DNA of 64,000 nt from the NCBI GenBank assembly GCA_048885865.1, contig JBHLLF010000002.1:64001-128000 (forward strand). The letters are read 5' to 3'. The notes beneath the pieces were generated by a model, which saw only the letters and a list, made by a program, of their open reading frames with translations, was not told where the DNA came from and did not search any database. The position numbers and the translations under genes are program-made. Source of the DNA: Candidatus Hermodarchaeota archaeon. GTDB lineage: Archaea; Asgardarchaeota; Thorarchaeia; Thorarchaeales; Thorarchaeaceae. The stretch's first letter is position 1, and each line of letters starts with the position of its first letter. Below are positions 31,331 through 40,545 of this stretch, piece by piece.

Positions 31331-32083
31331 CTATTTGCTATTCCATAAATCCTGGAACAATTTCATGTGAAAATCGACATACTCTTTGTCCTTGGTTACA
31401 AATGCATAGGGTTCTTTATCTGAAGACTCAAGGTTCACAAAGCTGATCCCATAGGAGTCAACTATCGCGAACGAGAGAGGGATGTCAGTATGTACTTTTA
31501 CCTCGAATCCAATTTCCATGGTATGATCTGAGAGGAATTTGATGTCAATCCCTTTATCTGCCAACCTGCGAAGCTCTGATTTCAGCTTGAACCAATCAAA
31601 GATTCCGCCAGTTGTTCTCTTACAGACCCACACCCTCCTCTGGGCTATTGCTAGCAACGACCGCACTATCGTTAGGCCATCGTCTAGCTGAACCAGTGAG
31701 GTGTCCATGGAATTGCTATGCAAAATGCTTCTGTTGCCATATTCTTCAAGACTATGACCCAAGGACATGATAGCTTGAATGCGATCCTCGAAGTTGCTTC
31801 TGAGCGTTTCAAGATAATGATGTACAATTGCTTTTGGTGATTGAGCGGCCACTATTAGCGGATCCTTGGAAACTTCCATAATGAGCTCCTTGCTCATTAA
31901 GCTCTTTAGAGTATCATAGACTCTAGTCCGATGAATTTTCGTCAAGGCGCTCAACTGACTAGCAGTGAAGGATTCACCTTTCAAGAGAACCAGAAAAATA
32001 CGAGTCTCATTTTGTGTCAAATCCAGAGTGCTCATGAGATCATCCCTGAGAGTATCAAGTTGAAGTCCAGAATCCTTCTCCAT
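31331..32083 (-). CDS. TrmB family transcription regulator
   Basis: LTQNETRIF..LL, IHRTRVYDTLKSL..K.LI; PLD-like C-terminal sensor domain. Confidence 0.85.
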   Translation of the reverse strand: MEKDSGLQLDTLRDDLMSTLDLTQNETRIFLVLLKGESFTASQLSALTKIHRTRVYDTLKSLMSKELIMEVSKDPLIVAAQSPKAIVHHYLETLRSNFEDRIQAIMSLGHSLEEYGNRSILHSNSMDTSLVQLDDGLTIVRSLLAIAQRRVWVCKRTTGGIFDWFKLKSELRRLADKGIDIKFLSDHTMEIGFEVKVHTDIPLSFAIVDSYGISFVNLESSDKEPYAFVTKDKEYVDFHMKLFQDLWNSK

Positions 32084-32166
32084 AGATGTCACACCGTGTC
32101 GCGACAGCCACATCATTACTTCTTTTAAACATGTTAGATTGGAATTTGAAACTTAGATGTGATGAT

Positions 32167-35050: not shown

Positions 35051-35219
35051 TAACATATTGTGACTCCATTCTGTGACCCTCAATTGTGGCTCCGCTATAT
35101 ATACTGATTCTGAGTGCTAATTCTTGTGAAATATCATGGCTCTAGCAACTAACTCTCGAAAGTCACACGATTTGAAGAAGAAGCGAACTCTGCCTCCTTC
35201 AACAAGGGCAATAGTCCAG

Positions 35220-35242
35220 GCTTACCTCTATAATAGGTAAGC
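35220..35242. promoter_or_regulatory. Perfect 8-bp inverted repeat, candidate operator
   Basis: GCTTACCT-N7-AGGTAAGC in the intergenic region. Confidence 0.4.
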
Positions 35243-35320
35243 ACCTGTTATGGGGGAATGGTTCGTGCCCTTCAAATATCCTGACGGTTTTGTGCACTCA
35301 TTCAACCGAAAAAAACGAAT

Positions 35321-35345
35321 GGTTTGGTTGCCAAACCTTTATATG
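35321..35345 (+). promoter_or_regulatory. Archaeal TATA box with abutting inverted repeat over the BRE
   Basis: GGTTTGG-TTG-CCAAACC directly followed by TTTATATG (35338-35345); predicted TSS ~35368-35370. Confidence 0.6.
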
Positions 35346-35369
35346 GATTTGGCCCGCACATTCAACCAC

Positions 35370-35711
35370 ACATCATCGGCAAGCAACCAGTTCGTGGAGT
35401 ATAGTGGTTGGTCACTGAGTGCCCGCAACTGCGGTCACTTTCGCCCATTAACGGCTTATACTGTGACCAGACATAATCTACGTGAGGCAAATCCAATGGA
35501 TAATGACCCAAACTGTGTTGTGGCCGGTTCAGCTCAAGATGTTGAAGTGCCCTCCCAGGCGGCTGTTAATGGGCGATCCTCGCTCGAAGGAGCATTTACG
35601 GTCAAGAAGGGACCGAGAGGTCCCAAGCCAGTTGTGGTAGATATACCATACTTAGCAAACTCCTATCTCCGTTGTGGCGCTCTCGGGGTCAAATCCCGGG
35701 AGCGCTACAGC
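35370..35711 (+). ncRNA. Putative large structured non-coding RNA with 3' tRNA-like minihelix (class unknown)
   Basis: Closing helix 35396-35409/35658-35670; 16-bp helix 35441-35456/35561-35576; hairpins 35418-35439, 35528-35546, 35582-35593, 35609-35624 (GAGA loop), 35633-35650; 17-bp hairpin with GUCAAAU loop at 35671-35711; G-U pairs favour the + strand. Confidence 0.65.
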
Positions 35712-35759
35712 TTACATCTGTGAGGTTAAGAGCCATGGTTTCGGAAGCGCCACATTCTG

Positions 35760-35775
35760 ATTTTTCCTTCTCTAT
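35760..35775 (+). terminator. Pyrimidine/T-rich tract, candidate archaeal terminator for the structured RNA
   Basis: ATTTTTCCTTCTCTAT. Confidence 0.35.
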
Positions 35776-35808: not shown

Positions 35809-37293
35809 ATGAGCAGATTAGCAAATGCAATAGGACTCCCAGATGCTAATGAAAAGGTTCTTCGATTAGCAAGGATCTTGATTTTCCTAGGCCCATTGGC
35901 TACATTCACTTTCACTATGTCGACCACCTTCTATCTGATTTTTGTCTCTGAAGCATTGGGTGGCGGCGATTATATCGCAGGCCTTCCCTTGGTAGCAACT
36001 CTTGTAGTCATCCAGATGGCCATTCAATTACTCCTGGACTACCCTACTGGTGCAATTGGAGACTGGATAGGACAGAAGTATATAGTATCATCAGCCACCA
36101 CGTGCTACGCTATTGCGTTTTGGTTAGTTTCACTGGTCACACCAACAACTCCATTCTGGTTCCTAGTCCTCATCTATGTAATTCAGGGCCTTGGCAACTC
36201 TCAGATGAGTGGAGCGCTTAACACATGGTTCGACAATAACTATAGAGTCGCCATGCCAGGTGACTCGGATAGAAAGCAGTATGGTATGTTTTGGGGAAGA
36301 GTCGGAGGAATGATGCAAGTCGTATCAACTGCAGCACTAATCCCTGGTAGCATCTTGGCTGCAGTCTTTGGTCGACCATGGGTATTCCAGCTGCAGGCTG
36401 TATTGGCTCTAGTCCTAACTATTCTCGGCCTCAGATTCATCACGGACTTTCCTGAGGTTCAGGCCGCACGACAACAGCGACCCACCATGAGTGGGTACAC
36501 CAAGATTCTGAAGGATGGTGTGAGCTATCTATGGAGTGAGCCCTTTGTCAAATACATCGTAATCGGATCAATGCTTGCCACCAGCTCGATAATGGTGTGG
36601 GGCAACCTTATCCTGTTCCCCATGTACTTCCTGTACCTTATCACTGACGTTGCTGTTGCATCGTTTCGGACTGTCCTATTCATTCCTGGGATTGCTGCAC
36701 AGGAAAGGTCTGGAGTTTGGTCTAGACGATTTGAACCCAAAATATGGATTCCTAGATTCCGACTTATTCAGACATGCGGGCTCGTGTTCTTCCTCGTCGT
36801 TTCATTCATAATGTTCCTATTTCCGCCTGCTACAAACGGTGGTCCGATGTTCAGCGTCGTTCTGCCTATTGCTAATGTGGAATTAATGCAGATACCAGTA
36901 GGCAACATCTTGCCGGTCGTGTTGCTCTTCTTTTCCTTCACTCTTACTGGCTTTTTTGGAGGATTTGCTGAGATTCTCACACAGAGGCAACTCCTTGATG
37001 CCATTCCAAATCGAATTAGGAACTCAATGTATTCCCTTTCTCCCACCATCGCAACCATATTTGCACTCCCACAGATCTGGTTCTTTGGATGGTTGATACC
37101 TACCATTGGATTTCCATTGACTCTACTGTTATGTGGAATGGTGTCTCTCATCGGTGTGTTACTGATACGCAAAGGTCTTCACCAGCCAAAGCCCGTTCTT
37201 GAAGAGGAGGCTTGGAGCAACAGCCAGCCGGAAGCCCAGGAAGTAATTGAAGAGATAGAAGAAGAGATGGCCCACGAACTGATTGAAGAGTAG
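35809..37293 (+). CDS. MFS-fold transporter (paralog 1)
   Basis: About 12 TM; LLDYPTGAIGDWIGQK; acidic C-terminal tail. Confidence 0.85.
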   Translation: MSRLANAIGLPDANEKVLRLARILIFLGPLATFTFTMSTTFYLIFVSEALGGGDYIAGLPLVATLVVIQMAIQLLLDYPTGAIGDWIGQKYIVSSATTCYAIAFWLVSLVTPTTPFWFLVLIYVIQGLGNSQMSGALNTWFDNNYRVAMPGDSDRKQYGMFWGRVGGMMQVVSTAALIPGSILAAVFGRPWVFQLQAVLALVLTILGLRFITDFPEVQAARQQRPTMSGYTKILKDGVSYLWSEPFVKYIVIGSMLATSSIMVWGNLILFPMYFLYLITDVAVASFRTVLFIPGIAAQERSGVWSRRFEPKIWIPRFRLIQTCGLVFFLVVSFIMFLFPPATNGGPMFSVVLPIANVELMQIPVGNILPVVLLFFSFTLTGFFGGFAEILTQRQLLDAIPNRIRNSMYSLSPTIATIFALPQIWFFGWLIPTIGFPLTLLLCGMVSLIGVLLIRKGLHQPKPVLEEEAWSNSQPEAQEVIEEIEEEMAHELIEE

Positions 37294-37375: not shown

Positions 37376-38902
37376 ATGAGTAGGGTAGCGAGGTTATGTG
37401 GATTCAAGGACCCCAACGACAAAGTGGCTAGATTGGCGTGGATCATGGTTACACTTGGTCCCATCATTATCTTCACTCTAGTGATGTCTAGTACCTTCTA
37501 CATGATCTTCGTCGCGGACACACTTGGCGGTGGTCCGGGCATGTTCCTTGAAGGATTAGCTTTTGTTGGAGTCCTGGTAGTAATCCAGATGGTAGTGCAG
37601 ACACTGCTGGACTATCCAACAGGCACGTTGGGAGATATGATAGGTCATCGATTCGTAATCGCGTCAGCTTATCTCATCTATGGAGTCGCCTTTTACATAA
37701 CATCTCTTCTGACACCAACCACGCCCATCTTTATGTTCGTTCTCGTGTATGTCCTATGGGGACTTGCATATTCCCAGGAGAGCGGTGCATGGGACGCCTG
37801 GTTTGACAATAACTACCGAGTGGCAGCTCCTGATGATGTCGAACGAAAGGACTATGGAGTGTTCATGGGGCGGCTGGGGATGATTGCCACAGCACTTTCA
37901 ATGGCGGCATTGATTCCTGGCAGCATCCTAGCAGTTGTCTTCAGTCGAATGTGGGTCTTTCAAGCTTCAGCGATATTATGTGTTGGTACAGCAATTGCTG
38001 TCCTGATGCTTGTCAAGGATTTTCCCGAAGTTCAAGAAATGAGAGATGAGAAACCGTCTGTTCGCGAGTACTTCAGACTCTTGAAAACGGGAGCAAGTTT
38101 CATTGTGGGCGACCCCTTTGTCAAATATGTGATCTTTGGTGGGGTTGTTATCTGGAGCTGCGTCTTCGTATGGGGCGAGCTCATAATATTCCCCTTGTTG
38201 TTCGCGTATCTTGTGACTGATGTTGCTGTTGCCACATTCAGAACCCTGCTGAGAATTCCAGGTATGTTTACCACTGAACGAGCTGGTGTCTGGTCTCAGA
38301 AATTCAAGCCCGAGGAATGGATTCCCAAGTTCAGACTGATTCAGAATTGTGGCTTTGCCTGCTTCCTCATTTTTGCGGCTATCATGTATGTCTTCAATCC
38401 TGTGACTGGACCTGTGACTCTAGTGGATGTAATGGTACCTTTCACGGACTTTGTGATTATGCAGGTACCTCAGGAGTCTCTGCTTCCAACTACTTTGATG
38501 TTCCTGACATTTGTGATTGGCGGGTTCTTCTTTAATGCGGCAGACATTCTGACAATGAGGCTGATGATTGATGTTGTACCTACTAGTATTCGAAACAGTG
38601 TCTACTCGCTGACTCCCACCCTTGCTATAATAGTCGCCATTCCACAGATAGCTTTCTTCGGGGCTTCGATTCAGCATATCGGATTTCCAATTACACTTGC
38701 GATCACAGGTCTCATTTCGTTGGTTGGAGTTCTCATGATTCGAAAAGGCCTTTCATATCCAATTCCTATTACCGAGGAGCGGAAACAGGCTCTGGAACAA
38801 GCTGCTCAAGAACAGCAGGAGACCACAATTGAACAGACGGGCCAAGATTCTAGTATAAATCCCTCAGATGATGCAGTACAAATGCCATCTGGACAAGATT
38901 AA
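37376..38902 (+). CDS. MFS-fold transporter (paralog 2)
   Basis: Collinear with paralog 1 (LLDYPTG, WFDNNYRVA, PFVKY, IRNS.YSL.PT); own TATA-like TTTTTATC ~25 nt upstream. Confidence 0.85.
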   Translation: MSRVARLCGFKDPNDKVARLAWIMVTLGPIIIFTLVMSSTFYMIFVADTLGGGPGMFLEGLAFVGVLVVIQMVVQTLLDYPTGTLGDMIGHRFVIASAYLIYGVAFYITSLLTPTTPIFMFVLVYVLWGLAYSQESGAWDAWFDNNYRVAAPDDVERKDYGVFMGRLGMIATALSMAALIPGSILAVVFSRMWVFQASAILCVGTAIAVLMLVKDFPEVQEMRDEKPSVREYFRLLKTGASFIVGDPFVKYVIFGGVVIWSCVFVWGELIIFPLLFAYLVTDVAVATFRTLLRIPGMFTTERAGVWSQKFKPEEWIPKFRLIQNCGFACFLIFAAIMYVFNPVTGPVTLVDVMVPFTDFVIMQVPQESLLPTTLMFLTFVIGGFFFNAADILTMRLMIDVVPTSIRNSVYSLTPTLAIIVAIPQIAFFGASIQHIGFPITLAITGLISLVGVLMIRKGLSYPIPITEERKQALEQAAQEQQETTIEQTGQDSSINPSDDAVQMPSGQD

Positions 38903-38970: not shown

Positions 38971-39714
38971 ATGTCAGATCGCCCGCAGTTCCTTACGGTC
39001 ACATACTCTGACCGGGGTCTAGATACAATGGGCCATGAGAGAAAGATGGTCCGAGAGAAGGATGTCAAGTTTGATGGCGAGGATGGCTCATTGGAGCTCA
39101 CAGATATCAGACTTGTCTGGATAAAAAAGCCCTCAAGATGGGGTTCCGCGAAGAAATTTGGTGCCCTTGCTGGAGCAGTGGCTGGTGCCGCCCTATTGGA
39201 AGGAATAGGCAGAGAAATGGGTGGAATCGGAGGTAGAGCAGTAAGAAGCATAGGTCGAGGTGTAGGCTTTGCAGCAGTGGGTGCAGCTATTTCGTCATGG
39301 AGTTCTGATTCCTTCTACAACAAGGATGCAAATGGCAACACCGAGAGTCTTGCGATTCCAATACTTGCCATAAGCCAGGCAGCCCAGAGTGGAGATGAAC
39401 TGGTCATCGATCTAACTTCTGGAGGGAATTTGCGCTTTAAATTCAGGCAGAGGCGAGTCATTCCTTCAATCATGGCCAATATCTCATCAGCTCAAAATGC
39501 AGGCAAGTGTCCCTATTGTGGAGCTGGGAATGCATCCGGAGCCAACGCCTGTTCCAAGTGTGGTGCACCCCTTGCAGGCGGCGGCGGTGGTCCAGCAGAA
39601 GGCCACACTGAGAGTGTCACTATCTCCACGGGAGGCGGAGGCTTCTGTACAAACTGCGGTCAGCAATATCCTGCAGGAGCAAAGTTCTGCGGAAGTTGCG
39701 GCCAGAAAGTCTGA
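38971..39714 (+). CDS. PH/GRAM-like domain + glycine-rich insert + two zinc ribbons
   Basis: GSLELTDIRLVW; GxxxG-rich segment; CPYC...CSKC and CTNC...CGSC. Confidence 0.75.
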   Translation: MSDRPQFLTVTYSDRGLDTMGHERKMVREKDVKFDGEDGSLELTDIRLVWIKKPSRWGSAKKFGALAGAVAGAALLEGIGREMGGIGGRAVRSIGRGVGFAAVGAAISSWSSDSFYNKDANGNTESLAIPILAISQAAQSGDELVIDLTSGGNLRFKFRQRRVIPSIMANISSAQNAGKCPYCGAGNASGANACSKCGAPLAGGGGGPAEGHTESVTISTGGGGFCTNCGQQYPAGAKFCGSCGQKV

Positions 39715-39759
39715 TTTCCGAGGATCTAGCAAGGTCTGGCTTATTCGCCAGACCCTCTC

Positions 39760-40545
39760 TCATCTAAAGAGGTCTTCCTCTTTTGCACGTGGTATGTCCC
39801 TAGCTGTTTCATGTCCTCTATTGTATTTGTAGCCTCTCAATACCACAATTGGCATTCCTTCGTCTGCTTGTCCCATCAAAGGTTCTGCTGCTGAAGCTAT
39901 CTCGTCAATCTGACAGACCATGGACCTTTGCATTGGCTTCCCATAGAGATCGAGCTTTCCTTTGTTATATTTGAACGCACTTATGCCAGCACATCCGAGA
40001 GCAATATTGATTGAGCCTTCTCTCCAAGGTCTGCCCTGTGTGTCAGTTATGATGACCGCCAGTTCGAAACCTGTTTGCTCCTCAAGATTCATCAGAATTG
40101 TAGCAGCACTTGCATCAGGGTCTTTTGGTAGCAAGATGAAGCTATCTGGAGGTGCATTTGATTTGTCTACTCCGCTAAAGTTGCAAATGAGGCCTGATTT
40201 GGTTTCAGTAATCAACACACCTTGGTTCCTTAAGACAACTCGGCTCTCTCTCAATGCCAGTTCGACCTGAACTGGATCGAAGCCATTAGATTCCGCAATC
40301 TCCTCTGCTCTACTAGAAATCTGAACAGAATCACGGTGCACGATTCTGCCTTCTGCCTTCGAGACGATGGAATGAGCTATAACAAGGACATCTCCCGGCT
40401 TCAAAGTAAGTCTGGATTTGCCTAGGCAGTCCAAGATCACAGAGGCTAGATTCATTCCTTTCTCAATCTCAGGGATACCTGGGATGCTAAATATCTGGAT
40501 TCCTAGTTGTGGCAACCTCTCATGTCTCAGAAATTCAGTAGGCAT
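39760..40545 (-). CDS. cofE: Coenzyme F420-0:L-glutamate ligase
   Basis: IVSKAEGR, GVDKSN, LPKDPDASA, IITDTQGRPWR.G, DEIASAA; start codon uncertain. Confidence 0.92.
   Translation of the reverse strand: MPTEFLRHERLPQLGIQIFSIPGIPEIEKGMNLASVILDCLGKSRLTLKPGDVLVIAHSIVSKAEGRIVHRDSVQISSRAEEIAESNGFDPVQVELALRESRVVLRNQGVLITETKSGLICNFSGVDKSNAPPDSFILLPKDPDASAATILMNLEEQTGFELAVIITDTQGRPWREGSINIALGCAGISAFKYNKGKLDLYGKPMQRSMVCQIDEIASAAEPLMGQADEGMPIVVLRGYKYNRGHETARDIPRAKEEDLFR

Follow-up and report, generated by a model that had tools for sequence, protein, structure and literature searches.

The sequence upstream of two tandem MFS transporter genes on a Thorarchaeota contig probably encodes the structured, translated 5' leader of an operon of peptide and MFS genes, which would couple and attenuate MFS expression. 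The features concerned (Table 1) lie in a stretch of 64,000 nt, called the window. Of the two readings that an initial annotation had offered for a densely paired region there, the second, a long cis-regulatory leader of the MFS gene, is supported by synteny with MFS, by structure, and by a reading frame under selection. Comparison of homologous loci shows a predicted chain that runs from a micro-peptide gene (peptide A) through a leader ORF and uORF D to MFS, with abutting stops and starts.

Table 1. Predicted features of the MFS upstream region (window coordinates)
Feature	Position	Strand	Basis
P1, putative promoter: three GTGAC-like direct repeats (13-nt period), then TATA box 35096-103	35059..35104	+	sequence, homologues
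Family A micro-peptide gene, 34 aa, basic, C-terminal STxAIxxAYxYR-type motif	35136..35240	+	family profile
Leader ORF, 157 codons, crosses P2 and all hairpins	35250..35723	+	open in all six sequences
P2, putative promoter: palindromic operator GGTTTG-N5-CAAACC directly abutting TATA box	35321..35345	+	sequence matches
GGTCAC/GTGACC module: three upstream sites and one downstream site around weak TATA-like box 35456-461	35409..35469	+	family copies
H1 hairpin, 9 bp	35418..35439	+	4 keeping vs 1 breaking variants; 2 pairs with two-sided change
H2 long-range helix, 35441-456 with 35561-576	35441..35576	+	13-bp core 35443-455/35562-574 kept
SD-like GAGG and ATG 35496, in leader ORF frame, 75 codons to same stop	35482..35498	+	ATG invariant in 6/6
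H3, H4, H5 short hairpins	35582-593, 35609-624, 35633-650	+	variant counts
Family-wide element: unpaired CU-rich tract, then 18-bp hairpin H6	35657..35711	+	covariation across loci
uORF D, 25 codons	35735..35812	+	start invariant in 6/6
Two tandem MFS transporter genes	35809-37293, 37376-38902	+	Pfam MFS_1

The gap had been described as the largest intergenic gap; under a crude mask of ORFs of at least 165 aa, it is only the sixth largest in the window, and it contains at least three small reading frames. Full-length homologues were found in three more genomes of the same Thorarchaeota genus (78 to 94% identity) and on two metagenome contigs, which together with the window make up the six sequences compared below. 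They are confined to one subclade of that genus and always lie 5' of the same MFS gene, whose subfamily is present in 72 of the 86 family genomes. A covariance model of the whole region recovered no further full-length copy from the 86 genomes, its partial matches lying mostly 5' of MFS paralogues, and the element was never met away from the MFS gene in model searches. On one more contig, 35436-35671 is matched together with short segments of P2 and peptide A, the junctions skipping 89 and 126 nt; this contig represents an additional relative whose 5' part is rearranged. The DNA contigs compared otherwise added only strain variants.

No Rfam family matches the region, the only hits up to an E value of 10 being two at noise level to snoRNAs (E ~1), and known riboswitches, T-boxes, and self-cleaving ribozymes (Rfam 15) gave no match here or in four homologous loci. 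The initial annotation was also right that the region is neither RNase P RNA nor SRP RNA. RF00373 has no match at an E value of ≤10, the CR-I/CR-V motifs are absent from six homologues, and the true RNase P RNA gene lies on contig C4 (162.6 bits); neither a match to RF01857 nor the helix 8 motif was found. The likeness to these two archaeal RNAs is one of size only (~310 to 340 nt), their hallmark motifs being absent here. SRP RNA had been considered since none was found in this genome, and it was rejected on the finding that genomes G015 and G008 carry both the element and a separate SRP gene. The SRP RNA gene of this genome is probably unassembled; G000:C67:1-350 is the flank of an SRP RNA locus that runs off the contig start. 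The bacterial noncoding RNAs OLE, raiA motif, GOLLD, and ROOL likewise show several hundred nucleotides of conserved pairing in an intergenic gap, whereas the region described here has no Rfam match, a narrow distribution, no conserved multistem core, and a selected open frame. We consider it very unlikely that the region belongs to a new riboswitch class that binds a metabolite and controls MFS. The position of a structured leader 5' of a transporter and the conserved unpaired stretches in 35520-35560 and the CU-rich tract would suit such a riboswitch, but the full structure is limited to four species and two contigs without an Rfam match, there is no conserved multiloop core and no alternative fold over an SD, and a cobalamin-riboswitch word near cbiX was rejected as not kept in homologues.

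The small reading frames of the gap are closely linked. The family A profile finds seven copies in this genome, and the C-terminal part of the family has a pN/pS of 0.46 in frame versus 1.2 to 1.4 off frame (32 sequences); the peptide has no Pfam match. The leader ORF begins 9 nt past the peptide A stop and ends inside the SD of uORF D (35719-725), and the TGA of uORF D overlaps the MFS ATG. The leader ORF is open for 156 to 188 codons in all six sequences despite compensated +1/-4 indels across P2, a later 4-nt indel changing its tail, and its stop falls within ~15 nt of the uORF D start in five of the six and at the MFS SD in the sixth. The chance probability of the open frame is 0.002, and that of no stop arising from 106 substitutions is 0.018. 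In each of the six, the stop of uORF D falls on the MFS start or at the MFS SD; uORF D shows no amino acid constraint. As in a translationally coupled uORF leader, the open frames are kept by selection and their stops abut the next start. The corresponding gap of other genera contains a chain of selected micro-ORFs in which every ORF stops on the SD of its successor. A long frame running from the GGTCAC/GTGACC module through the hairpin to uORF D or MFS is also present in the sequence-divergent genome G016 (193 codons) and in genus g10 (124 to 128 codons), neither of which can be aligned to the window in the middle, and the module's frame frequently reaches its stop on the MFS start in genera g2, g3, and g7. 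Only about half of the loci gave a significant result in the chain test, and in two loci of genus g5 the CU-rich tract is not covered by any ORF.

The initial annotation had named codon-level conservation of the 157-aa ORF as evidence against its own reading. Half of this was found: the frame is kept open by selection, and its amino acids are mostly unconstrained. The product has no Pfam match and no usable Atlas match, forms a singleton cluster, and gave tblastn matches in the same genus only. Mild amino acid constraint is seen in 35385-35495 (P = 0.01 to 0.05 across clades). In 35496-35651, dN/dS is ~0.7 to 1.3 with no BLOSUM signal (P = 0.09 to 0.73), and no conserved sensor or arrest peptide sequence was found there. 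Between this genome and G008, synonymous sites have diverged by 0.21 in 35496-35651 versus 0.81 in MFS, and no indel occurs across 267 nt of the region. By these measures, 35496-35651 is constrained at the nucleotide level and not at the protein level, and the leader ORF looks selected for ribosome passage rather than for its product. A DNA operator or promoter together with a small protein gene of 75 or 157 aa that evolves fast, and with pairing that is incidental or serves only to stabilize the mRNA, would agree with the open frame, the invariant SD and ATG, the adjoining real peptide genes, and the mild constraint at the 5' end. We rate it as distinctly improbable, as 35496-35651 shows neither amino acid constraint nor homology to the peptides of family A or family C, the clades differ in the C-terminal frame, and H2, H4, and H6 bear signatures of RNA in their G-U intermediates and compensatory changes.

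The dense pairing and the choice of the plus strand as the structured one were borne out: against shuffles, 35380-35700 has a z score of -3.1 on the plus strand and -2.3 on the minus strand. Five homologues gave -2.7 to -3.9 for 35410-35655 and -4.0 to -5.9 for 35410-35715, which includes the 3' hairpin, and the plus strand was always the more stable. Individual helices were evaluated by counting the variants that keep or break pairs, the keeping fraction expected by chance being 0.31. The proposed closing helix (35396-409/35658-670) is not conserved, with 1 keeping versus 8 breaking variants, nor are the inner stems 35470-475/35514-519 (2 versus 5) and 35528-546 (1 versus 2). The annotated hairpin H1 is present and conserved, though it is partly a by-product of two inverted sites; its loop-proximal pairs covary. 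The annotated 16-bp helix H2 is also present, its 13-bp core being paired in all six sequences. It scores 3 keeping versus 3 breaking variants, with all breaks at the helix ends, and within the core one pair forms an A-U/G-U/G-C series and another varies between G-U and A-U. H2 encloses the SD and ATG at 35482-498 and occurs only in the window's subclade, where the duplex reaches -25 to -29 kcal/mol, versus -7 to -18 in every other module copy. An origin of H2 as an inverted promoter copy was rejected, there being no TATA box or site downstream on the minus strand. All three short hairpins of the initial annotation exist, of which H4 is conserved (3 keeping versus 0 breaking), H3 is even (1 versus 1), and H5 scores 1 versus 4, its register being shifted in the second clade and one of its changes being compensatory. 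The strongest conserved helix, the 18-bp hairpin H6 (35671-711; 7 versus 2), had been missed.

Taken together, H1 to H4 and H6 have 18 keeping versus 7 breaking variants (P = 3e-5), these helices having been chosen post hoc; the originally annotated H1 to H5 give P = 0.012 and the whole original model P = 0.14. A pair counter found 93% of cells paired and 9 two-sided changes (0/500 shuffles), which fall on only 5 two-sided pairs (64/500). The power to detect covariation is low, because the full structure is found in only ~5 independent sequences. On these comparisons, several consecutive local hairpins are conserved together with a single long helix; the closed multiloop is not. The T-rich tract noted at ~35760 is present as a T5 run within the uORF, in this genome alone.

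The TATA box reported at 35338-345 is present and abuts the P2 palindrome, in support of the promoter that the initial annotation had proposed, and a P2 transcript is predicted to start near 35368. Matches to the palindrome come from 16 of 61 genomes; at most of the other loci they stand 5' of micro-peptide arrays and adjoin a divergent winged-helix regulator gene, and we infer that a regulator binds the palindrome. One candidate for the P2 regulator is a 225-aa winged-helix protein with weak PadR and HTH_20 Pfam matches (L065:4747-5424, on G000:C13), encoded divergently from a peptide array that carries the P2 palindrome, a layout that recurs in many family genomes. The TATA box of P1 lies 40 nt 5' of the ATG at 35136, P1 is kept in homologues, and a second copy precedes a peptide array on contig C18, all of which is consistent with P1 working as a promoter.

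The GGTCA and TGACC repeats, for which the initial annotation proposed pseudoknots or alternative folds, are all present in their six copies; the pseudoknots find no covariation in 39 family copies. In these 39 distinct copies of the module, no outer pair covaries, and the sixth outer pair is G-G in 18. The search that yielded them fixed a 24-nt spacer, and separate pattern scans allowing 23 to 25 nt as well as model matches gave the same spacing. Module pN/pS is 1.3 to 2.1, showing no protein-type constraint. An AT-rich word stands just 5' of the last site, and the module is mostly followed, after 28 to 33 nt, by an SD-led start that belongs to a peptide gene, to a uORF, or to MFS. In the window, the TATA-like box lies 40 nt before the ATG at 35496, the same distance as that from the P1 TATA box to its ATG. 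Because the outer pairs lack covariation, and because the repeats resemble the three GTGAC-like sites of P1, which lie upstream of its TATA box and hence outside the P1 RNA, they are probably DNA sites of fixed spacing and not RNA pairing elements. The module would then be a third, factor-dependent promoter, P3. A 261-aa protein with a TrmB-like N-terminal helix-turn-helix, recognized by eye, is encoded at 31331-32116 on the minus strand of the window, divergently from the operon running into cbiX, and is a possible binder of GTGACC sites.

The CU-rich tract and H6 together reach further than the rest of the structure. They occur in ~30 Thorarchaeota genomes, well beyond the window's genus, and in 11 other loci 92% of cells are paired, with 14 two-sided changes (0/500 shuffles). 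Mutual information over 25 loci is 0.39 for paired versus 0.11 for off-register columns, the stems having been anchored by pairing, which favors a higher paired value. A model built without the window locus recovers it at an E value of 9e-5, and almost all model hits below 1e-4 are at the same MFS subfamily. An ORF often ends within the hairpin loop; in genomes G024, G075, and G065 that ORF is MFS itself, with a convergent neighbor behind it. In these three genomes no long gene in the same orientation is left for the element to control, which suggests a role in termination or in 3' stabilization. More generally, the element may be a putative terminator, attenuator, or 3' stabilizer. Archaeal terminators dependent on FttA/aCPSF1 (PMC11616081) share with it a pyrimidine tract near an apparent transcript end and a possible competition between termination and translation, FttA exclusion by ribosomes being only a hypothesis in that work. 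FttA prefers U-rich RNA (PMC11616081), whereas the tract here is CU-rich, so termination at the tract is put forward as a deduction only; the tract also has a fixed sequence and is followed by a covarying hairpin of 13 to 18 bp, often with a stop codon in its loop.

Several other roles for the element were rejected. Pairing of the CU-rich tract with a downstream SD, as an anti-SD for the next start, is not above chance, the P values being uniform over 25 loci. A tRNA-like minihelix does not fit H6, the loops of which differ across 25 loci and in which ARAGORN finds nothing; its T-loop-like word is confined to this genome. Nor is the element a general terminator of this genome, which has one real copy only. 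A variant of the tract and hairpin was seen at an unrelated locus (L138, G097:C122:3736; L139, G081:C15:116935), where it falls within a short ORF, and this ORF overlaps the start of a membrane-type gene of 315 aa.

A discrete RNA running from the predicted P2 start to the end of H6 at 35711 would measure 343 nt and could be a functional, lineage-specific noncoding or dual-function RNA, its unpaired CU-rich tract possibly seeding against the SD/stop motifs of peptide arrays. H6 marks apparent 3' ends elsewhere, the constraint on 35496-35651 is of the nucleotide type, and at most g5 loci the tract pairs best in cis with an SD of the GGAGGUAG type located at peptide stops (-11 to -14 kcal/mol, values that have no null distribution). 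Against such an RNA stand the unconserved closing helix, the absence of the element away from MFS, the lack of indels over 267 nt with an open frame that stops past H6, and a 5' part made up of a DNA-site module that is also found at loci without the structure. We therefore regard a discrete RNA as unlikely. The stand-alone, closed-multiloop RNA of the initial annotation fares no better, its closing helix being unconserved, its repeats behaving as DNA sites, and its sequence being crossed by a frame that is selected open.

In the translated-leader reading that we prefer, P1, P2, and P3, under two different DNA-binding regulators, would feed transcripts into one frame. Ribosomes crossing the leader would melt H1 to H6 and cover the CU-rich tract, and would then reinitiate at uORF D and next at MFS by termination-reinitiation. 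Where the leader is untranslated, most plausibly on P2 transcripts, whose only SD-led start lies within H2, the CU-rich tract and H6 would end or trim the transcript before MFS. Placed ahead of uORF D and MFS, the element would act as an attenuation point, and the leader would set the level of the transporter relative to the peptide genes, the candidates for a sensed signal being the peptides or the transporter substrate. The predicted accessibility of the uORF D and MFS starts barely differs among P1, P2, and P3 transcripts, so that no switch is predicted at these starts. Coupling through ATGA overlaps and the opening of long-range pairing by upstream translation are both known, and coupling has been shown in Haloferax (PMC6728339). 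The window resembles termination-reinitiation as described there in its abutting or ATGA-overlapping stops and starts and an SD inside the upstream ORF, and it resembles upstream-translation-dependent initiation in the long-range pairing around an internal start (PMC6728339). In contrast to those cases, the upstream frames here, in an Asgard archaeon, seem to be mostly conduits with little amino acid constraint; they extend across internal promoters and connect micro-peptide genes with a transporter.

A more far-reaching version, which is possible but doubtful, makes the region a ribosome- or ligand-sensing attenuator. P2 would give a stable RNA of ~343 nt ending at H6 unless the leader is translated, and the tract and hairpin would represent an archaeal signal, present across the family and so far undescribed, through which transcription termination is coupled to translation and the micro-peptide arrays are linked to their transporter. 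Bacterial transporter and resistance genes have leader-peptide attenuators such as mgtL-mgtA, tnaC, speFL, and the cmlA and tetL leaders. The region shares with these a structured leader with putatively translated uORFs 5' of a transporter and a pyrimidine-rich tract with a hairpin that a ribosome could shield; it differs in having no conserved arrest motif, no predicted anti-SD/SD switch, and no U-tract terminator, in an archaeal host without Rho.

To our knowledge, RNA-level control through translated leaders is barely described in archaea. Our literature search returned nothing on such control in Asgard archaea and no description of this locus, its conserved open frame, or the covarying tract and hairpin. 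The region offers a compact test case, in which a covarying CU-rich tract and hairpin, a leader frame apparently selected to stay open and not for the protein it encodes, and a micro-peptide/MFS system not described before come together. It also calls for caution in genome scans, as large structured gaps in Thorarchaeota that seem empty are stacked promoters and chains of micro-ORFs.

Four more arrays of basic peptide genes of 29 to 40 codons were observed in G000, on contigs C13 (~39500-39980, minus strand), C18 (27250-27660, plus strand), C1 (186550-186820, plus strand), and C22 (47640-47950, plus strand). All four are chained by overlaps of SD and stop and draw on recurring C-terminal families (A, YYDY type, and LMWEAT type); those on C13, C18, and C22 each use a promoter module of the window's gap, and that on C1 does not. 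At loci L040 to L064, a conserved two-cysteine peptide of 38 to 41 aa (VQSFG core; pN/pS, 0.37) is encoded 250 to 370 nt upstream of MFS; it occupies this gap in genus g5 and is not detectable in the window's genus. At L049, L052, L054, L058, L063, and L064, a frame of 51 to 52 codons lies 370 to 540 nt upstream of MFS and is open across the AT-rich internal promoter region, resembling the window's leader ORF across P2.
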